A stretch of DNA of 64,000 nucleotides from an uncultured Caulobacterales bacterium. GTDB taxonomy: Bacteria; Pseudomonadota; Alphaproteobacteria; Caulobacterales; Parvularculaceae. The stretch lies in the NCBI GenBank assembly GCA_964392325.1, contig CAYMPJ010000002.1, forward strand, positions 65,521 to 129,520, read 5' to 3'. A program made the translations under genes and the position numbers. Shown piece after piece: positions 5,943 to 38,558 of this stretch. The notes under the pieces are model-generated. The model ran no database searches and was not told where the DNA came from. It saw nothing but the letters and a program-made list of their open reading frames with translations. Each line of letters begins with the position of its first letter. Positions within the stretch are counted from its first letter, which is position 1.

Positions 5943-6070
5943 AAATTTTAAGGGCGAAATTGTAACCGGGTACTCTATGATTTTGCGTTTTTAAAAAGGG
6001 GCGGTTGGGTGAGCCCGTTTTTCCAAAAAATCTGGCTTTAGACAAAATCCGGCGCGAGAAAAAGAACAAC

Positions 6071-6349
6071 TTACTTGTTTAAGCGTTCTTTGATCTCTTT
6101 ACCGGCTTTAAAAAAGGGTGACCATTTTTCTTCAATCGAGACAGACGCGCCAGAACGAGGATTTCTGCCAATTCGGGCTGGTCGGTGTTTTACGGAAAAT
6201 GCGCCAAATCCCCGCAGTTCTACCCTGTCCCCATTGGCCAAGGCTTCGGTGATTTCATCAAAAACCACAGATACGATCCGCTCCACATCCCGGTAATAGA
6301 GATTGGGGTTTTCGTCCGCCAGCTTTTGGATCAATTCCGATTTAATCAT
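6071..6349 (-). CDS. ihfB: Integration host factor subunit beta
   Basis: The HU/IHF fold sequence [10 protein letters not shown]...[26 protein letters not shown] is present. The ATG at 6349 is preceded by GGGAGA; the longer ORF-track start is rejected. Confidence 0.9.
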
Positions 6350-6717
6350 GAGTATCTCCCTCAAATCTGATAGCTCAACCAACCGTGGCTATACCGCACT
6401 ATGCTAAACCCCTGAAGTGCAATGGGCCGCAGTGCAATATATCGGGCTGTCTTCTAAAGCTGAACCAGATGCATTCCCTAAATGCGCAAATAACAATGAT
6501 TTTGACTGCCACATTGTCGAACCAGCCAATTTTTCCACTCTTTATTCTATACTATGCCAAATTTTGCGATCGGCTTTGGGGCTTTTCAACCGCCATGCGA
6601 AAGCGTAATTTTGGCACAAACATAGAAAAATATACAAATTCATATACTTAACGGTTAAAACAGTGTCAAAAAATCAATGCGGCGTCAAGGCACTTCTCTT
6701 TACAAACATAGCCCGCT

Positions 6718-7518
6718 ATGACCATCTCACCCATTATGAGCACACAAAAAGACACGATTGATTTTGGATTTGAGACTATTGCCACCGAGCAGAAGGCTGG
6801 CAAGGTCCGGGCTGTTTTTGACAGTGTTGCCAGTAATTACGATATTATGAACGATGCCATGTCGATGGGTATTCACCGGCTATGGAAGAAAACCCTCCTT
6901 GATCGCTTAAGCCCGCGGCCCGGACAATCCCTGATTGATGTCGCAGGCGGTACTGGCGATATTGCCGCTGGCTTTATTCGCCGCGCCAATGAGCGCGGGT
7001 CCGATAAACCAGCTCATGCTACCATTTGCGATATTAATCATTCCATGTTGAAAGCCGGACAAGAGCGCGGACAAAATGTTAAAAATCCCGATGCTCCCTA
7101 TCAGGATCAAATGACGCGCGTATGCGGCAATGCGGAGGCACTACCGCTTCCCTCTTCCTCTATGAATGCCTACACAATCGGTTTTGGAATTCGCAACGTC
7201 ACGGACCGCGATGCGGCCTTGCATGAAGCCTACCGGGTTTTGAAACCGGGGGGGCGGTTTATCTGCCTTGAGTTTTCCCACATGATTACTGGCAGTTTGC
7301 AAAAACTCTATGACACCTATTCATTCAATGCCATACCGTGGCTCGGCGAAAAAATCGCGGATGACCGTGACTCCTACCAATATCTGATTGAATCGATCCG
7401 AAAATTTCCCACCCAAGAAGCATTCCGCACACAAATTGAGCATGCCGGCTTTTCAAAAGTTCGCTTTGAAAATTTAAGTGGTGGTATCGCCGCTCTTCAC
7501 CTTGCCTGGCGGCTATAA
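6718..7518 (+). CDS. ubiE: Ubiquinone/menaquinone biosynthesis C-methyltransferase
   Basis: SAM motif DVAGGTGD, C-terminal GGIAALHLAWR-type end typical of UbiE, followed by ubiB. Confidence 0.92.
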   Translation: MTISPIMSTQKDTIDFGFETIATEQKAGKVRAVFDSVASNYDIMNDAMSMGIHRLWKKTLLDRLSPRPGQSLIDVAGGTGDIAAGFIRRANERGSDKPAHATICDINHSMLKAGQERGQNVKNPDAPYQDQMTRVCGNAEALPLPSSSMNAYTIGFGIRNVTDRDAALHEAYRVLKPGGRFICLEFSHMITGSLQKLYDTYSFNAIPWLGEKIADDRDSYQYLIESIRKFPTQEAFRTQIEHAGFSKVRFENLSGGIAALHLAWRL

Positions 7519-7543
7519 ATATTCCTGCAAAAAGAAACATTTT

Positions 7544-9118
7544 ATGTTCAGCTATATTGGTGACGTTTTCAGGCTTTTACGTGCAGGCGCAGCACTTACT
7601 CGCCACGATGCGCTCGTCCCCCTCGAATATGCACATCACTTCCCGCTTCCCTTAAGACTATTTGGCAAGTTAACGCGTATTGGCGCAAAAAAACATGATG
7701 GCGAGCGTCTATTACGCCCGGGGGAGCGCCTTGCAAAAGCGTTTGAAGGCCTTGGCCCGTTTTATGTTAAAACCGGGCAATTTATGGCAACCCGGCCTGA
7801 TATAATCGGGTTTGAAATGGCCAATGATCTGTGCAGGTTGCAAGATCGTATGCCGCCCTTTTCCCGCGATTTGGCAATTGCCGAAATTGAACGCAGCCTC
7901 AACAATAAATTAGGCAATCTGTTTACTGAATTTTCCGAACCCATAGCCGCTGCCTCCATAGCCCAAGCGCACAAAGCCGTCACAAAAGATGGCGAAAAAG
8001 TTGCCGTTAAAATATTGCGCCCGGATATTGAGCGGACCGCCTCGAAAGATTTTCGCGCCCTTTCAAGAGCTGCAAAACTCCTCGAAAAAATCTCCCGCAA
8101 CATCCGGCGTATGGAGCCTGTGAAATTCATTCTCACCCTTCAAGAGGCGGCGCGCCTTGAACTGGATTTACGCCTTGAGGCAGGTGCGGCTTCCCAAATG
8201 GCGGATAATTTACATTGCGATACAAAAATGCGCATCCCGGCAGTCGTCTGGCCCTATCTGGCTAAACGTGTGCTGACTATTGAATGGATCGATGGTACGC
8301 CAATTGGCGATCTCCCTGAGCTCGATAAGCGCGGTATTGATCGCCCTGCCTTGGCGGTCCAGATCATGCAAACCTTTCTAACCCAAGCGCTGCATCAAGG
8401 ATATTTCCATGCGGATATGCATCAGGGTAATATGATCATTGATGAAGAGGGCCGCCTTGCGCTTATTGATTTTGGCATTATGGGCCGCCTTGATGTGGAT
8501 GCACGGCGTACATTTGCGCAAATTATTTTTGGCTTCATCAACCGTGATTACCAGCATACTGCGCAGGTTCACTTTGATGCAGGCTATGTTGAAGCGCATC
8601 ATTCCGTTGATGCCTTTGCCCAGGCGCTACGCGCCGTTGGCGAGCCGATGTATGGACAAAATGCCGATAAGGTCGATATGTCAAGGGTATTGCAACAACT
8701 CTTTGATGTAACCGAAATGTTTGACATGCACCTTCGCCCCGAGCTGGTATTATTACAGCGCACCATGGTGACCGTTGAAGGCGTTGCCCGTATGCTCGAT
8801 CCGCAAATTAATATGTGGGATTGTGCGAGCCCCGTGATACGCTCATATATTGCCGGACAAGTCGGGCCAAAAGTTCAAATCGAGCGGGTGCGCGATGCGG
8901 CGCTTAAGGCCATAGAAATCGCCCCGAAAATACCCAGCTATGTTGAGGAACTGGCGACAGCGGCGAACAAAATATCAGATGAGCGTTTGGGTCTTTCCCA
9001 AACAACCACGCAAGAACTCGCCCGCGCTATGGCCAAAGAGAGCCGCGCCACAAGAGCGGCCATGTGGTTTGCGGGCTTTGGTGCGCTCGTATTGGCCGGG
9101 ATCTTAATGGTGCAATAG
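7544..9118 (+). CDS. ubiB: Ubiquinone biosynthesis protein kinase-like UbiB (ABC1 family)
   Basis: AASIAQAHKA, HADMHQGN and IDFG motifs, plus C-terminal TM helices. The ATG at 7544 (MFSYIGDVF) avoids overlap with ubiE. Confidence 0.92.
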   Translation: MFSYIGDVFRLLRAGAALTRHDALVPLEYAHHFPLPLRLFGKLTRIGAKKHDGERLLRPGERLAKAFEGLGPFYVKTGQFMATRPDIIGFEMANDLCRLQDRMPPFSRDLAIAEIERSLNNKLGNLFTEFSEPIAAASIAQAHKAVTKDGEKVAVKILRPDIERTASKDFRALSRAAKLLEKISRNIRRMEPVKFILTLQEAARLELDLRLEAGAASQMADNLHCDTKMRIPAVVWPYLAKRVLTIEWIDGTPIGDLPELDKRGIDRPALAVQIMQTFLTQALHQGYFHADMHQGNMIIDEEGRLALIDFGIMGRLDVDARRTFAQIIFGFINRDYQHTAQVHFDAGYVEAHHSVDAFAQALRAVGEPMYGQNADKVDMSRVLQQLFDVTEMFDMHLRPELVLLQRTMVTVEGVARMLDPQINMWDCASPVIRSYIAGQVGPKVQIERVRDAALKAIEIAPKIPSYVEELATAANKISDERLGLSQTTTQELARAMAKESRATRAAMWFAGFGALVLAGILMVQ

Positions 9119-34115: not shown

Positions 34116-35588
34116 ATGATGTCGCACGAATCAGACGATTTTACTCAGACGATCGTGCAGTCAACGGGAGAGAAAGCCATGACCAAAGAACCGGAACTTG
34201 AGGCTCTTGAAGAAGCTTATACCTATACCCGCCGCTGGCTGGGCAATATTAATGAGGCCAAGGTTGGGGCAGTGGCAAGCGTTGAAGCCCTGCGCGCGAG
34301 TTTTGATATGCCTCTCCCTGAATCGGGCGCTGATCCTGTAAAAATCATCACTGATCTGGCAAAAGCAGCAGAGTCGGGATTAAATATCAATTCTAGTGGC
34401 CGGTTTTTCGCCTGGGTGAATGGCGGGTGCCTGGCCTCGGCTCTTGCAGCAGATTTACTGGTGACCGCCTGGGACCAGAATGCCTCCATGTTTGCGGTGT
34501 CTCCAGCTGCCAGTATCATCGAGGAGGTTGCCGGAAACTGGATGAAAGATTTGCTCGATCTGCCCCGCGAGGCGTCTTTTGCATTCACCACTGGATGCCA
34601 GATGGCCCATACAACCGCGCTTGCCGCAGCAAGATTATCGGTTCTGGAACAAGCTGGCTGGGCCCTCAATGAACAAGGGATGTTCGGAGCTCCAAAAATC
34701 CACCTGATTACCAGCGGCAATCGTCATGGTTCAATTGAACGGGCAGCAAGGTTTTTAGGATTTGGACAAAACTCCCACATCACCGTAAAAACCGATGAGA
34801 TGGGTAGAATGCAAGCGGGGGATCTGCGCGCGGTTCTCTCACAAGCCAAGGGTCCAAAAATTGTTTGTTTAAATGCAGCCGATTTGAATGTTGGTGCTTT
34901 TGATGAATTTGACGAACTCATTCCTGTCGCCAAAGAATTTGGTGCATGGGTGCATGTTGATGGTGCATTTGGGTTATATGCCAGAGCAAGCCGCGCCAAG
35001 CGCCACTTACTTGCTGGTGTCGAGCTTGCTGATAGCTGGGCAACCGATGGCCATAAATGGCTAAATGTACCCTATGATTGCGGTATCGCCATCATTCGCG
35101 ATAGCAAAGCCCACCGGGCCGCTATGACTTTATCGGCGGAATATATCGCAACAGAAAATATTGCCCGCGACCAGATTGACTGGAACATGGAATGGTCACG
35201 CCGTGCCCGCGCTATTCCGGTTTATGCAAGCCTAAAAGAACTGGGGCGCAGCGGCGTAGAAGATATGATAGATAGATGCTGCACTTATTGCGAAGCCATT
35301 GTAAATGGCATTGGCGCTCTGGCGGGGGTACGTGTCCTCGCCGCCCCGACCCTTAATCAGGGACTAATCCGTTTTGAACGGCCCGGGGCGAGTGATGAAG
35401 AAAATAATCAGTACACATTGAATATGATTGAACAGATCAATAAAACTGGCGAGGCTTTTTTCTCCTCCACCTTATGGCGCGGCACGCGAGCAATGCGCGT
35501 TAGCGTTGTCAATTGGCGCACAAATGAGGAGGATGTCAGCCGGACAATTGCAGTAGTTCAAAAAGTCCTGCAGCAGTCTCACGTTTAA
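34116..35588 (+). CDS. PLP-dependent group II decarboxylase family protein
   Basis: PLP lysine region SWATDGHKWLNVPYDCG. The more likely start is the ATG at 34179 (MTKEPEL), which is preceded by GGGAGAG. Confidence 0.85.
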   Translation: MMSHESDDFTQTIVQSTGEKAMTKEPELEALEEAYTYTRRWLGNINEAKVGAVASVEALRASFDMPLPESGADPVKIITDLAKAAESGLNINSSGRFFAWVNGGCLASALAADLLVTAWDQNASMFAVSPAASIIEEVAGNWMKDLLDLPREASFAFTTGCQMAHTTALAAARLSVLEQAGWALNEQGMFGAPKIHLITSGNRHGSIERAARFLGFGQNSHITVKTDEMGRMQAGDLRAVLSQAKGPKIVCLNAADLNVGAFDEFDELIPVAKEFGAWVHVDGAFGLYARASRAKRHLLAGVELADSWATDGHKWLNVPYDCGIAIIRDSKAHRAAMTLSAEYIATENIARDQIDWNMEWSRRARAIPVYASLKELGRSGVEDMIDRCCTYCEAIVNGIGALAGVRVLAAPTLNQGLIRFERPGASDEENNQYTLNMIEQINKTGEAFFSSTLWRGTRAMRVSVVNWRTNEEDVSRTIAVVQKVLQQSHV

Positions 35589-35622
35589 AATTCCAATAGC
35601 AGAGGTAAAATGCGCCTTGTGA

Positions 35623-35645
35623 GCCTAATCCAGTTTTGATTAGGC
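35623..35645. terminator. Hairpin between convergent genes
   Basis: GCCTAATC-CAGTTTT-GATTAGGC forms an 8-bp stem between the decarboxylase stop (35588) and the membrane-protein stop (35657). The flanking T-runs are weak. Confidence 0.45.
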
Positions 35646-35656
35646 CATCATCCGTT

Positions 35657-36856
35657 TTACGGCGCTATGGTTTTATCCAACCATGGGATCAATTGGTTTG
35701 CAACGAAAAACCCTGCAACAGTATCGGCGAAAAGTGAGAACATCCATGTCAGTACTGGAAAAATGACCAGCGCGATCAATCTTATTGTTACGGATGCATT
35801 GATCGGCCACTCACGAACGGAATTAATATAAGTTTTATAATTGATCAAATCCATCTGATTCATATCGCTAGTATTCTGTTTCAAATGGGAGTGTGAAAGG
35901 GAAGAATAATCGCCATTGAGCGCTTGATTGATAACTTCGATTTCCCGGCTCTTGGTTTGACGTAATTTTTTTACGATCCCGGAAACGGGCAAATAGAATG
36001 CGATAATGGAAAACGGCGAAACCAAAATGAGAATTATCAAAGACGGACCTAATAGGTTCAAACCATCAACAATGAGGGCAATGGGGATCACCAATAATGT
36101 ACTGACCATCGCAAACAAAGTCTTTAACCCGACATGAGAATAAACGATTAGGTTATCAGTATTGAGAAGGTTAATCTTGGTGTTGCGCTTACCAACACGG
36201 CGAAAAATAAATCCGCCATTAATGATGATTGCCGTTGCCTGCAAAATAATCACCCATGTGAAGAGAGCCATAAAAAAGCCGAGCAAGAATCCAGTGGGAA
36301 CCTGCTCACCAGCTAAGAAGGCACGCACCTTGGGATTTGTAGAATTTGCAACGAGTAAAAAAACGATTGAAGACAAAGTCATCAATGTGAACTTTACTCT
36401 AGAAACATGGGTAATACGTTTTCTCAATTCAGCGTAGGCATTTTCCGAGAGATCAAGATCAGGGCGCAATCGATCCAAATTCTTCTCATATTGCTTGACG
36501 AGATACAGGCATAATGCGCTCGTATAGCTAATCTGTAGGGCATTTGCTGAGGGTAGATCCAAGATTATTGTTGGTGGCAGGAATATTGCCATGAATAGGA
36601 TAAAAATCAAATATGGATTGAGCCATGAGATATTATTCAATCTCAACAAAAGAGGGTTGCATAATGCTGGCGCAGCAATGGATTTAGGTTTTCGTATAGA
36701 AAGTTTCTTCGCAGGTGAGCTTGTTTTTTGCCCGACTTGACTTTCAATGCGCCCCTCTATTCGCTTTTTCTTTTTTGTCTCTGCACTTTGCCCCGCGGCG
36801 CTATCGAGCAGCTTAGCTGACAAGGAGGAAAGAGGTTTTGTTGTCAAATTTACCAT
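35657..36856 (-). CDS. Hypothetical polytopic membrane protein (399 aa), no family recognised
   Basis: A basic, hydrophilic N-terminus of about 50 aa is followed by about 7 hydrophobic helices with two soluble loops. The ATG at 36856 is preceded by GGGGG-N6. Confidence 0.6.
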   Translation of the reverse strand: MVNLTTKPLSSLSAKLLDSAAGQSAETKKKKRIEGRIESQVGQKTSSPAKKLSIRKPKSIAAPALCNPLLLRLNNISWLNPYLIFILFMAIFLPPTIILDLPSANALQISYTSALCLYLVKQYEKNLDRLRPDLDLSENAYAELRKRITHVSRVKFTLMTLSSIVFLLVANSTNPKVRAFLAGEQVPTGFLLGFFMALFTWVIILQATAIIINGGFIFRRVGKRNTKINLLNTDNLIVYSHVGLKTLFAMVSTLLVIPIALIVDGLNLLGPSLIILILVSPFSIIAFYLPVSGIVKKLRQTKSREIEVINQALNGDYSSLSHSHLKQNTSDMNQMDLINYKTYINSVREWPINASVTIRLIALVIFPVLTWMFSLFADTVAGFFVANQLIPWLDKTIAP

Positions 36857-36899
36857 TTTAAACCCCCTTTCTCCATTATCGGTTTGTATTGAGATCGTT

Positions 36900-37739
36900 T
36901 TATCGACCGAATTTAAACCATTTCTTGGCTGCATTTTTTGCGTGGCGCGTATCCTTCAAACATCCAACAAAGGTCAAGTTTGGACTATATGCCAAATCTC
37001 GCGGCGTGCATGATCCCAAAGGAAGAAACGCTGATCCGATTGTCCGGCGCATTCCTGAATTATCGTGTAAATCGTTGATTGTATCGATAAGGTTGCTTTT
37101 CAATGCATCATAAACTTCTGGAGTCGATGCTGTGAAAGGGTTTTTGCGCGCACCATTGATGATGGCATCAATCCCATACTTATTGGCGGGGGTCGCCTGC
37201 GCCTGATAATAACTTGAAGAAACGACTTGCACGCAAGTCATGGGCGTTTTGTCAGAATTCTCATCCAGCCATTTTACGATTTCATGTTGTATCTGCATTA
37301 GCGCAAGACGCAGAAATTCACGTTCAGTTGAATCTGTGGGGAGTTCACTTGCCATGAGCGCAACCGCAACCAGGAGCAAATCGCTATAAGCATACGCGCC
37401 CCCAACGAAACTTTTTGCTTGCGTTAAAATTGGCGCCACCGGCCAGTCTTGATCTCCCAGATGATTGCCATCGTCAGATACATACCGATACACATCAATG
37501 AGGTTTTGCGCGTTAACATCAACATCAATGGTTTCGTATTTGATGCCGTGTGTTGTGGCTTCTACAACCATGTGCGTATTATTCTCTATACCGATATATT
37601 GTGTAGCGTGACTATAGTCACCCTCATCCAGCATCATGATGATTTTATCAATGTCACTATCACCGCCTGAAAGCAGGACATCACCTGGTTTTAAATCTGC
37701 GAGCGATAATTTTTTTGGATTTGGTGGACGGCGCGACAT
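36900..37739 (-). CDS. Permuted papain-fold (NlpC/P60-like, YiiX/C92-like) hydrolase
   Basis: The motif order is LKPGDVLL, then SHATQYIG, then VVEAT..GI, then later MTCVQVVSSSYY and TPRDLAYSPNL (His before Cys). The ATG at 37739 is preceded by GGGAGAGAG. Confidence 0.55.
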   Translation of the reverse strand: MSRRPPNPKKLSLADLKPGDVLLSGGDSDIDKIIMMLDEGDYSHATQYIGIENNTHMVVEATTHGIKYETIDVDVNAQNLIDVYRYVSDDGNHLGDQDWPVAPILTQAKSFVGGAYAYSDLLLVAVALMASELPTDSTEREFLRLALMQIQHEIVKWLDENSDKTPMTCVQVVSSSYYQAQATPANKYGIDAIINGARKNPFTASTPEVYDALKSNLIDTINDLHDNSGMRRTIGSAFLPLGSCTPRDLAYSPNLTFVGCLKDTRHAKNAAKKWFKFGR

Positions 37740-37924
37740 ATCTCTCTCCCTGAGCATTTAATCATTCACTCTATAGGTCCAACACAAATTGTCAAACCAG
37801 TTATTCACGGCATTACTTCAGCAATGATGGTTGGTTAGTATTATTTTTTTTAATTTAGAAATGAAGATAAGCTATTATATTCCCGCCCTCTAAAGTAGAG
37901 CCTAAGTCAAATCTATTCTGCCTA

Positions 37925-38067
37925 ATGAGGAACCGTGTTGAGCTTTTTCAACGGAGCACGGCTGCGCTGGCAATGCGTGTTAGCATTGACGATTGGCGCA
38001 TGAATGAAGATGATATCACCCGGATAATTGCTGCAGCACAAAAGTCCTGCAGCAATCTCGAGTTTAA
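37925..38067 (+). pseudogene. Orphan, frameshifted copy of the decarboxylase 3' end
   Basis: 37971-38067 aligns by hand to 35491-35588 with about 79 of 98 matches and one 1-nt gap. It translates as AMRVSIDDWRMNEDDITRIIAAAQK, compared with AMRVSVVNWRTNEEDVSRTIAVVQK. Both copies end in GTTTAA. Confidence 0.8.
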
Positions 38068-38079
38068 AAGGCCATGAAT

Positions 38080-38508
38080 TTAAAAGGGAAACGATTTAAG
38101 ATCGGGGTCGACCCAGCGATAGCGCGCCTCCACACTGAAGAGCTTCTCCTTGGACCAATACTCCAGCAACCAGTCACTGCGGCCCATCTGCGTGGCCAGC
38201 AAAGCATTGACTGTCACATATAAAGGTTGTTCATCGGGGGCCTTATTTAGAAAATCTTTTGCACCGCGCAAGGACGCCATCGTAATCGTTTCGTGATATC
38301 CATCACTATCTGAACTTTCCACCCCCGTTGCCTCATTATATGTTCTTATAATTGATGGCATTTGGCCAAAAACATCTCTTTGACCATCAGATAATAGGCC
38401 AATAGCAGCAGCAAAATGCGCATTGTGGGTCCATTCCGGTTTTGGCAATGTATGATCAATCAGCCCGCTGACGACACGGTTGATTTCAATATCTGAACTA
38501 TATGTCAT
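38080..38508 (-). CDS. Hypothetical protein (142 aa)
   Basis: Clean ORF with an ATG at 38508 (MTYSSDIE). No family recognised. Confidence 0.55.
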   Translation of the reverse strand: MTYSSDIEINRVVSGLIDHTLPKPEWTHNAHFAAAIGLLSDGQRDVFGQMPSIIRTYNEATGVESSDSDGYHETITMASLRGAKDFLNKAPDEQPLYVTVNALLATQMGRSDWLLEYWSKEKLFSVEARYRWVDPDLKSFPF

Positions 38509-38558
38509 TTCTTTTTTCCTTTTCGGCTTTAAGTGCGACACCGGATCTGGCGCAGCCC

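Follow-up and report, generated by a model that had tools for sequence, protein, structure and literature searches.

The window analysed here, a stretch of 64,000 nucleotides from an uncultured Caulobacterales bacterium, carries at positions 35657 to 37739 a compact module of two genes, and the question that this locus raises is what a papain-like enzyme and a membrane protein outside every described family are doing side by side. A first-pass annotation had proposed two co-oriented genes separated by a 43-nt gap, and both were confirmed as minus-strand open reading frames (ORFs). Gene 1 (36900-37739, minus strand, within an ORF of 36900-37757) encodes a 279-aa cysteine enzyme of the permuted NlpC/P60 group (YaeF/YiiX, C92-like), and gene 2 (35657-36856, minus strand, within an ORF of 35657-36934) encodes a 399-aa membrane protein with seven predicted transmembrane (TM) helices. 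The start of gene 1 at 37739 was preferred because a Shine-Dalgarno sequence, GGGAGAGAG (37742-37750, minus strand), is located 2 nt upstream and because all homologues begin at the equivalent MSLRP; the GGAG core of this element, as read from the sequence, lies 6 nt from the ATG and supports the 279-aa product. The start of gene 2 at 36856 was preferred because GGAGAAAGGGGG (36863-36874, minus strand), likewise read from the sequence and contained in the 43-nt spacer, is found 6 nt upstream, and because independent gene callers made the same choice, in support of the 399-aa product. Both ribosome-binding sites are strong. Upstream of gene 1, a candidate sigma-70-like promoter (37768-37795, minus strand; TTGACA, 16 nt, TAGAGT), a consensus match alone that scored 10/12 in the scan, sits within an AT-rich leader region of 185 nt. 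Since homologous clusters number 38 for gene 1 and 2,909 for the family of gene 2, the two were accepted as genuine genes and not as chance ORFs.

The module had also been read as lying on an acquired segment, for which the main support comes from diverged relics of the two flanking genes on either side of it. On the right, a relic of the 3' end of a PLP-decarboxylase gene (37956-38074, plus strand) was recognized by repeat analysis, blastn and translation (ELFQRSTAALAMRVSIDDWRMNEDDITRIIAAAQK) as a 78% copy of positions 35477-35595, with similarity at the protein level beginning near 37937, and it probably marks the right border of the acquired segment. On the left, an internal fragment of a 153-aa gene (35586-35638, minus strand) is 77% identical to positions 38392-38444, the translations being AHKAHFTSAIGIL and THNAHFAAAIGLL, respectively; this relic is placed between the stop codon of the decarboxylase gene and the stop codon of gene 2 and would mark the left border. 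Base composition lends weak support to the acquisition of the module, for which GC contents of 0.41-0.45 were obtained versus 0.475 in the window, GC3 not being distinct. No integrase, transposase, tRNA, terminal inverted repeats or Rfam element was found flanking the module.

Gene 1 encodes a divergent member of the YaeF/YiiX-type permuted NlpC/P60 enzymes. The original assignment to the circularly permuted enzymes of the YiiX/C92 type was borne out, with His, polar residue and Cys following one another in the order then given, and the motifs PGDVLL, SHATQYIG, VVEAT, MTCVQVVSSSYY and TPRDLAYSPNL were all found to be present and to form conserved blocks in an alignment of 37 family members. 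The protein consists of a single domain, and its homologues fall into 38-39 clusters. The Pfam profile PF05708 (C92) was matched at 27.9-28.0 bits (cutoff 27), which is above the gathering threshold but marginal, and the match spans only profile positions 2-75 of 166, that is, the N-terminal half; just 11 of the 37 family members reach this profile at E<=0.01. A Foldseek search against the PDB retrieved YiiX (2IF6; E 2.6e-6, TM-score 0.64) and BcPPNE (3KW0; E 9e-5, TM-score 0.65) and no further match below E 0.1. In the AF2 model (pLDDT 83.5), Cys169 opens helix 169-178, His44 opens strand 44-52, and Glu60 is located in the following strand. Across the 37 aligned sequences His44 and Cys169 are invariant, and Glu60 and Tyr116 are each retained in at least 90% of them; these four residues are the predicted catalytic residues of gene 1.

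Residue-level comparisons with the two structural relatives are in line with this prediction. When gene 1 was aligned with E. coli YiiX by hhalign, DYSH fell on DYSH, VVEAT on VFEAV, and Tyr116 on Tyr115 of YiiX, the signature tyrosine that in BcPPNE is Tyr127; HMMER aligned His49 of BcPPNE to His44, and the spacing from His to Glu is 16 residues in gene 1 versus 15 in BcPPNE (PMC3142127). The correspondence of C-V-Q-V-V in gene 1 with C-S-E-V-V in YiiX comes from a local alignment with an E value of 0.16, not significant alone. Gene 1 shares with YiiX and BcPPNE a common fold, the order His, Glu, Tyr, Cys, and the elements DYSH and V-E-A, and C-x-[QE]-V-V at a helix N-terminus may be a further shared element, but identity is as low as 10-17%, and gene 1 differs by a helical insertion of about 45 residues between Tyr and Cys (about residues 120-165 in the comparison with YiiX) and by a longer region after Cys, where residues 195-245 are poorly modelled. 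Helix 111-129 is conserved in the family and strongly hydrophobic (Kyte-Doolittle 1.68). The S1 pocket of YiiX holds a fatty acid, and hydrophobic S1 pockets are found across the permuted NlpC/P60 enzymes (PMC3142127). E. coli YiiX carries an obvious signal peptide/lipobox, whereas gene 1 carries none; neither a signal peptide nor an N-terminal hydrophobic segment was detected in the gene 1 family, and the product is predicted to be cytoplasmic. A further difference from the YaeF/YiiX relatives is that the gene 1 family has a dedicated membrane partner downstream.

For this partner, gene 2, the lysine-rich cytoplasmic head, about seven TM helices and two soluble loops described earlier are backed by hydropathy, the positive-inside rule and the helices of the AF2 model (pLDDT 74, all-helical), in which long helices extend past the bilayer. 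The predicted topology is N-in/C-out with seven TM helices, and the larger loops (residues 121-155, 216-239 and 291-352; loops A to C) would all be cytoplasmic, with K+R counts of 5.8 at the N-terminus and of 7.7, 3.3 and 10.4 in loops A to C versus 0.2-1.2 on the opposite side. A REWP motif is conserved before TM7, and loop C contains it together with the invariant Lys302 and Trp350; conserved catalytic-looking residues were not found in the family. The window copy has, in addition, a lineage-specific Lys/Ser-rich N-terminal extension of about 65 aa and a C-terminal tail of 14 aa. That gene 2 fits no described family still stands, with Pfam, NCBIfam, PADLOC, PHROGs, PDB sequences and Foldseek against the PDB and BFVD all negative: two profiles gave no match among PDB sequences at E<=10, and the best Foldseek E values were about 1 (PDB) and about 0.1 (BFVD viral library). 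A weak match to DUF485 (15.7 bits, cutoff 28) was dismissed as noise.

The description of the module as an orphan, on the other hand, had to be given up, for it proved to be a recurrent unit and the gene 2 family to comprise thousands of clusters. A word-based search had returned two relatives, and the near-orphan status of gene 2 was overturned by a profile built from the ORFs downstream of gene 1 homologues; an exhaustive profile search yielded 2,909 clusters at 50% identity. Partners at other loci are 25-36% identical to gene 2 (E 1e-45 to 1e-67). No plasmid match was obtained for the family (tblastn of two members against 72,556 plasmids), and a scan of viral contigs returned nothing. Because the gene 2 family is far larger than the gene 1 family and also occurs alone or behind other upstream genes, including those for a sulfatase-family enzyme and a TPR protein, it appears to have a function of its own.

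The synteny check named in the first-pass annotation came out in favour of the pairing. A homologous partner was found directly downstream of gene 1 in about 12 of the 16 assessable lineages, and the paired lineages include Bacteroidota and Gammaproteobacteria and extend over several bacterial phyla. At the conserved loci, the spacing from gene 1 to its partner ranges from -37 to +21 nt, the order and orientation are the same, stop and start codons often overlap, and the surroundings of the paired lineages are otherwise unrelated. The pairwise identities of the two families are correlated (r = 0.87, 36 lineage pairs). In four lineages gene 1 is found without the partner, its His and Cys intact, so the partner is not strictly required by gene 1; the solo copies adjoin other polytopic membrane proteins, namely a 7TMR-DISM cyclase or membrane sensor kinases, as would suit an enzyme working at the membrane. 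The TM domain of the histidine kinases of these lineages was tried as a gene 2 homologue and rejected (hhalign probability 0.1). One distant homologue of gene 1 was located on a viral contig (L027), where it is also unaccompanied. The solo copies, together with the fact that most of the gene 2 family occurs without gene 1, might suggest that the two genes are mere neighbours with no functional link, but order, orientation and an overlap or a gap of <=21 nt have been kept in about 12 lineages that share no other surroundings, and both families have diverged together as the above correlation indicates; this reading is extremely improbable, and the synteny brings it close to refuted.

If the genes are linked, it may be asked which of them is the functional core. 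Gene 2 could be a channel, transporter or sensor, on which the enzyme would act by cleaving or deacylating a cytoplasmic loop or the Lys-rich head as a switch. The disproportion between the families (2,909 clusters for gene 2 versus 39 for the enzyme) and the occurrence of gene 2 alone or behind sulfatase-family or TPR genes, as if accessories plugged into one membrane module, speak for such an arrangement; a regulatory surface could be formed by the helices that extend past the bilayer together with Lys302, Trp350 and REWP, the invariant elements of loop C, and a role in signalling is hinted at by the sensor kinases and the cyclase beside the solo copies of gene 1. However, the Foldseek comparisons given above revealed no resemblance of gene 2 to a known channel, transporter or sensor, and the cytoplasmic loops of its family were not seen to carry a conserved Cys or Gly-Cys acylation motif. 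The permuted NlpC/P60 enzymes characterised to date have lipid acyl groups and not protein backbones as their targets (PMC3142127, PMC12994826). On balance, we consider a gene 2 core switched by gene 1 to be very unlikely.

The earlier statement that no described system has this pairing is outdated, as a permuted NlpC/P60 enzyme is combined with a membrane protein both in LnsAB (PMC7387801, PMC13559823) and in Tox-Act1/Imm-Act1 (PMC12994826), although the membrane partners in these systems are not homologous to gene 2 and the systems act outside the cytoplasm. The gene pair most resembles known two-protein lipid acyl-transfer systems. Like the gene pair, LnsAB joins a YiiX-like permuted NlpC/P60 enzyme, whose centre is Cys/His/Tyr, to a polytopic membrane protein without essential catalytic motifs; it moves the sn-1 acyl chain of phosphatidylglycerol, and both proteins are needed in vitro (PMC13559823). 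LnsAB is the best functional analogue for how the gene pair could work. LnsB is of the CPBP/CAAX type (249 aa) and remotely homologous to archaeal Rce1 4CAD (PMC7387801), whereas gene 2 shows neither sequence nor fold similarity to CPBP: it had no Pfam match, the CPBP/Abi family included, and 4CAD was absent from its Foldseek matches. Moreover, LnsA leaves the cytoplasm and forms a cap over LnsB on the external side of the membrane, whereas gene 1 has no export signal and the gene 2 loops are predicted to be cytoplasmic, and lnsA and lnsB are not contiguous, whereas the gene 1 and gene 2 families are adjacent or overlapping. The N-termini of lipoproteins are inaccessible from the cytoplasm, so the substrate must differ from that of LnsAB.

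The location predicted for gene 1, on the cytoplasmic side of membranes, is that of the LRAT/HRASLS (PLAAT) proteins of animals, which are also permuted NlpC/P60 enzymes and in which an acyl-thioester on the catalytic Cys hydrolyses or transfers phospholipid acyl chains (PMC3142127, PMC7387801). These proteins are eukaryotic and possess their own C-terminal TM anchor, whereas the 7-TM protein that accompanies gene 1 is encoded separately; neither sequence nor Foldseek comparison gave a significant match between gene 1 and LRAT/PLAAT.

Taken with the conserved pairing, these comparisons lead to the reading that we favour, namely that the operon encodes a two-protein enzyme complex on the cytoplasmic face of the inner membrane which functions as an acyl hydrolase or transferase; we assign it a probability of roughly 0.4. 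Gene 1 and the gene 2 loops are predicted from their sequences to be on the same, cytoplasmic side; what we infer beyond that is that the two proteins interact physically and that the substrate is a lipid, as well as which way the reaction runs and which physiological role the pair has. By analogy with LRAT/PLAAT, LnsA, Tox-Act1 and the fatty-acid-bound YiiX, Cys169 would be activated by His44 and Glu60, and Tyr116 would stabilise the acyl carbonyl. Cys169 would then attack a fatty-acyl ester or amide, giving an acyl-thioester, and the simplest substrate would be a membrane glycerophospholipid or a lipidated amine or peptide. The acyl group might be released as a free fatty acid, in which case gene 1 would be a phospholipase or deacylase, or be passed to an acceptor, as by an acyltransferase. 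The three Lys/Arg-rich cytoplasmic loops of gene 2 may hold the enzyme at the bilayer and either present the lipid to it or gate its access, in the way that LnsB serves LnsA; this scaffold role is proposed by analogy only, gene 2 being unrelated to LnsB/CPBP.

The location of the known enzymes is a separate matter that tells against such a lipid complex: the characterised bacterial relatives YiiX, YaeF, LnsA and Tox-Act1 act outside the cytoplasm. The four lineages with a solo gene 1 and the occurrence of the gene 2 family on its own weigh in the same direction. The patchy, horizontally transferred distribution would fit a conflict system too.

The alternative of a conflict system, either for anti-phage defence by abortive infection or as a toxin-antidote pair, can be framed in two ways: gene 1 may be a phospholipase-type toxin that would damage the membrane of its own cell from the inside, with gene 2 restraining it, releasing it on infection or protecting the bilayer, or gene 2 may be a pore-forming effector with gene 1 as its activator. 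The gene pair is rare and patchy across phyla, with a new neighbourhood each time; relics of the flanking genes bracket the module of the window, indicating acquisition; and the compact layout of two overlapping genes with the enzyme first is that of toxin-immunity pairs. In a Flavobacteriaceae lineage, the gene adjoining the pair is a strong match to the TIR defence candidate PDC-S35 (E 8e-77), and this trio is set between housekeeping genes. Among known systems, Tox-Act1/Imm-Act1 provides a permuted NlpC/P60 phospholipase used as a toxin with a membrane immunity protein (PMC12994826), and LnsA was extremely toxic on its first expression in E. coli (PMC13559823).

Tox-Act1/Imm-Act1 of the Salmonella T6SS (also TseH) resembles the gene pair in that a permuted NlpC/P60 enzyme, for which His and Cys are essential, is followed directly by the gene of a membrane protein, and Tox-Act1 is a phospholipase on PG and PE (PMC12994826). 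It differs, however, in being delivered by the T6SS and toxic only in the periplasm, and Imm-Act1 is a small protein of two TM helices (PMC12994826). The gene pair has instead a 7-TM partner of 330-400 aa, which is unlike typical small immunity proteins, has solo enzyme copies, and belongs to Pfam C92 and not to DUF4105/DUF6695. Tox-Act1 is, furthermore, harmless in the cytoplasm (PMC12994826). Secretion-system, Rhs, PAAR and CDI genes are absent nearby: at the gene-called loci, no T6SS, T5SS, Rhs or PAAR gene was found within 6-10 kb on either side of the pair.

The lean of the first-pass annotation towards defence or toxin-immunity thus found little backing. Neither gene 1 nor gene 2 had a match at E<=1 in PADLOC (PADLOC-DB 2.0), and PHROGs gave none; plasmids and viral contigs yielded no match to the gene 2 family, and for gene 1 they yielded a single distant homologue, on a viral contig. 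A defence candidate adjoins the pair in just one of about 12 contexts, the other neighbours being metabolic or housekeeping genes without a PADLOC match. Four lineages retain a catalytically intact gene 1 and no partner; a toxin dependent on an antidote would not be expected to occur in this way, and an obligate toxin-antidote relation is accordingly disfavoured. We therefore place a conflict system on the unlikely side, and the lipid acyl hydrolase or transferase complex is kept as the preferred reading.

A bolder reading, which we regard as distinctly unlikely, is that the 7-TM protein represents a large undescribed superfamily of at least 2,900 clusters that lacks any Pfam model or structure, serving as an interchangeable dock or activator for cytoplasmic enzymes. 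At this locus the enzyme would be the YiiX-like cysteine enzyme, and at other loci TPR proteins or a sulfatase-family enzyme would take its place. The branch paired with C92 enzymes would then constitute a new two-component system, horizontally mobile, by which the inner leaflet of the cell's own membrane is remodelled or, on a trigger such as phage infection, destroyed.

To our knowledge, the bacterial YiiX/YaeF-type enzymes are widespread and almost uncharacterised, and a reaction has been defined for LnsA alone, an enzyme that needs a membrane partner. Were there a second partner family, unrelated to the first and genetically linked to its enzyme, this would point to the combination of a permuted NlpC/P60 enzyme and a polytopic membrane protein as a general design for membrane acyl chemistry, and the gene pair would be the first such case predicted to act from the cytoplasmic side. 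Its practical impact will be modest until a substrate or a phenotype is found. The analysis also exposes a sizeable unannotated family of membrane proteins, for which the conserved enzymatic neighbour provides a first functional handle.

The two genes lie in the same orientation on the minus strand and are separated by a spacer of 43 nt. The open reading frame of gene 1 (the putative enzyme gene) spans 36900-37757 (-) and its first ATG gives 285 aa; the ATG at 37739 gives 279 aa, the length originally reported, and was preferred because GGGAGAGAG is found 2 nt 5' of it, with the GGAG core 6 nt from the ATG, and because it is the MSLRP start common to every gene 1 homologue in the family alignment. 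The frame of gene 2 (the membrane protein gene) spans 35657-36934 (-), and its ATG at 36856, giving 399 aa, is the choice of independent gene callers and has GGAGAAAGGGGG 6 nt ahead of it. A sigma-70-like site at 37795-37768 (-), composed of TTGACA, 16 nt and TAGAGT, matches the consensus and was considered a candidate promoter, and a search for an intrinsic terminator for the two genes found none. These frames, starts and spacer confirmed the co-oriented pair described in the first-pass annotation.

The pair is bracketed by diverged partial copies of both neighbour genes. The 3' end of the PLP-decarboxylase gene, ~120 nt at 35477-35595, has a second copy at 37956-38074 (78% identity; relic translation ELFQRSTAALAMRVSIDDWRMNEDDITRIIAAAQK), and an internal 53-nt piece (38392-38444) of the 153-aa gene (38080-38541 (-), without a hit to Pfam, NCBIfam, PADLOC or PHROGs) has a copy at 35586-35638 (77% identity), which lies directly 3' of the decarboxylase stop codon. 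Overall, the stretches that hold these duplicates run over 35477-35638 and 37937-38444, with 77-78% identity. The layout is therefore full decarboxylase gene, fragment of the 153-aa gene, gene 2, gene 1, decarboxylase fragment and full 153-aa gene, and the cargo between the relics consists of the two genes and their leader only. The module has neither an integrase nor a transposase gene, no tRNA, no Rfam element and no terminal inverted repeats, and the whole 64-kb window (1-64000) lacks tRNA genes and Rfam families at gathering threshold. The GC contents of the two genes (0.41 and 0.45) deviate only mildly from that of the window (0.475), and their GC3 is not distinct. The segment looks acquired, and recombination with DNA of a related genome having the same neighbourhood would be the simplest reading.

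Gene 1 matched Pfam Peptidase_C92, the YaeF/YiiX permuted papain-like amidases, with 28 bits against a cutoff of 27, the alignment covering only profile positions 2-75 of 166, and NCBIfam YaeF scored far below its threshold. The C92 model is reached by 11 of 37 family members, and the family lies at its edge. The family is small, with 39 clusters among 5.8 billion proteins, none of them named; named records with homologues include Flavobacteriaceae, Cryomorphaceae, Spirosoma, Gemmatimonadota, Pseudohongiella and Azotimanducaceae. The sole viral match was a distant homologue (28% identity) without membrane partner on an IMG/VR viral contig (L027 1043-1714). Of the 37 aligned sequences, all have His44 and Cys169 and at least 90% have Glu60 and Tyr116, and all motifs quoted in the original description are present and fall on conserved blocks.

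In the AF2 model of gene 1 (pLDDT 83.5), His44 opens a strand, Glu60 lies in the next strand and Cys169 is the first residue of a helix. The only significant PDB matches in Foldseek were YiiX (2IF6, E 2.6e-6, TM 0.64) and the B. cereus enzyme BcPPNE (3KW0, E 9e-5, TM 0.65). HMMER paired His44 with BcPPNE His49, and hhalign against E. coli YiiX aligned DYSH with DYSH, VVEAT with VFEAV and Tyr116 with the signature tyrosine Tyr115; the cysteine motif C-V-Q-V-V is similar to C-S-E-V-V of YiiX. The predicted catalytic residues of gene 1 correspond to the published BcPPNE set of Cys154, His49, Glu64 and Tyr127 (PMC3142127). Unlike YiiX, gene 1 has a ~45-residue helical insertion between Tyr and Cys and a longer, poorly modelled post-Cys region, and lacks a signal peptide. 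The first-pass annotation was correct in assigning gene 1 to the permuted NlpC/P60, YiiX/C92-like enzymes.

Gene 2 drew no hit from Pfam, NCBIfam, PADLOC or PHROGs, none from PDB sequences searched with two profiles, and only best Foldseek E values of ~1 (PDB) and ~0.1 (viral library); its AF2 model (pLDDT 74) consists of helices only, several of them very long. A word-based search yielded two relatives only and thereby understated the family. An exhaustive profile search put it at 2,909 representative clusters with E<=1e-3, of which 550 also passed E<=1e-30; almost every member is a single-domain protein of ~350 aa. Hydropathy and the positive-inside rule, applied across the family, predicted seven TM segments, N-in and C-out, with family mean Lys+Arg of 5.8 in the N-terminal head, 7.7 in loop A (121-155), 3.3 in loop B (216-239) and 10.4 in loop C (291-352), against 0.2-1.2 on the opposite side of the membrane. 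Among 49 diverse members, Lys302 and Trp350 (REWP motif) are the sole invariant residues and no catalytic-looking conserved pattern was found. This large, unannotated membrane family is real and new. The window gene 2 carries a lineage-specific 14-aa tail and a lineage-specific Lys/Ser-rich head of ~65 aa (residues 1-65, 36662-36856), absent in all homologues, and gene 1 ends in a basic, aromatic tail, HAKNAAKKWFKFGR (residues 266-279, 36900-36941), likewise lineage-specific and absent in all homologues; the head of gene 2 and the tail of gene 1 could be extra membrane- or partner-binding elements.

Pairing was assessed in loci fetched around gene 1 homologues, and absence was counted only with enough flanking DNA. 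A gene 2 homologue (25-36% identity to gene 2 of the window, E 1e-45 to 1e-67) directly followed gene 1 in the same orientation, the two genes overlapping by up to 37 nt or lying up to 21 nt apart, in ~12 of 16 assessable lineages (the window, L001/L002; L003; L004-8/L013; L011; L014; L016; L017; L018-20; L024; L025; L031/32; L033/34), and was missing in four (L009, L010/L021, L012 and L030, Spirosoma rhododendri). The genes around the pair are different from lineage to lineage, so the two travel together, and their pairwise identities are correlated over nine full-length lineages (Pearson r = 0.87, 36 pairs). Such synteny and co-divergence essentially exclude mere adjacency of the two genes; the pairing is conserved, real and new. 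In two loci a gene is broken: gene 1 occupies two reading frames in a Pseudohongiella MAG (L011 5227-6332) and the partner falls into two ORFs in a marine contig (L014 4092-5108), representing either decaying copies or assembly errors.

Other associations were also recorded. Multi-TM histidine kinases are encoded divergently from the C92-like gene, with no 7-TM partner, in a Cryomorphaceae MAG (L012 6201-7592 (-)) and, as an ortholog, in Spirosoma rhododendri (L030 6427-7782 (-)); they share 46% identity overall and 37% in the TM sensor domain, and constitute a second conserved association of the enzyme in two Bacteroidota lineages. In L009, the gene 17 nt upstream of the solo C92-like gene, in the same orientation, encodes another polytopic membrane neighbour, a 7TMR-DISM receptor with a fused adenylate/guanylate cyclase domain (5945-7984 (+)). 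Seen from gene 2, the linkage does not hold: more distant members of its family are solo or behind other genes, such as one only 28 nt behind the gene of a sulfatase-family (alkaline-phosphatase superfamily) enzyme (L038 4588-7062) and one flanked by two TPR protein genes, with a gap of 4 nt (L028 3576-7503), and the 7-TM protein may partner with different proteins. The much greater size of the membrane family and the variety of its upstream partners would fit an enzyme that regulates or modifies a membrane-protein core, a reading we regard as quite improbable.

That the pair is a conflict system is suggested by its patchy distribution, the acquisition scars at the module and the compact layout with the enzyme gene first. 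Moreover, in the marine Flavobacteriaceae lineage (L004-L008 and L013) a TIR protein, a strong PADLOC defence candidate (PDC-S35, E 8e-77; L004 4749-5663 (+)), is encoded just upstream, the TIR gene and the pair being three accessory genes between miaB-like and ftsY housekeeping genes. However, PADLOC and PHROGs gave no match to either protein, no member of the gene 2 family was found on a plasmid or viral contig, gene 1 has just its one distant homologue on a viral contig, the other neighbourhoods contain mostly metabolic or housekeeping genes, with uncharacterised neighbours scanned without PADLOC match, and solo gene 1 copies retain the catalytic residues. A conflict role is considered rather unlikely.

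To our knowledge, every characterised permuted NlpC/P60 enzyme acts on fatty-acyl groups. The protein of gene 1 has no export signal and carries a conserved hydrophobic helix, the predicted cytoplasmic loops of gene 2 share the enzyme's side of the membrane, and the two genes are tightly coupled. As precedents, the YiiX crystal holds a fatty acid inside its hydrophobic S1 tunnel (PMC3142127), LRAT/PLAAT proteins are phospholipase/acyltransferases (PMC3142127, PMC7387801), LnsA with LnsB moves the sn-1 acyl chain of phosphatidylglycerol onto lipoproteins (PMC13559823) and Tox-Act1 is a PG/PE phospholipase (PMC12994826). Taken together, these features best support a tentative model, to which we assign a probability of about 0.4, in which the pair is a membrane-docked, cytoplasm-facing acyl hydrolase or transferase. 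Fold, motifs, topology and linkage were established in this analysis; the interaction of the two proteins, their substrate and the reaction's direction are inferred. In the model, an acyl-thioester would arise at Cys169, with the 7-TM protein serving as dock and substrate presenter.

The interpretation in the first-pass annotation is supported in part. Its family call stands, but its statement that no such pairing had been described needs correction, as LnsAB and Tox-Act1/Imm-Act1 both combine a permuted NlpC/P60 enzyme with a membrane protein. The module belongs to neither pair. Gene 2 shows no similarity to the CPBP proteins, the type of LnsB, and LnsA is exported, whereas no export signal is seen in gene 1; Imm-Act1 is small and has 2 TM helices, in contrast to the 7-TM gene 2, and Tox-Act1 is delivered by T6SS. 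Both the class of enzyme and the overall design have known parallels. The module is best regarded as a diverged YiiX-family enzyme joined to a partner of its own, whose 7-TM family is undescribed, and its predicted site of action is the cytoplasmic side.
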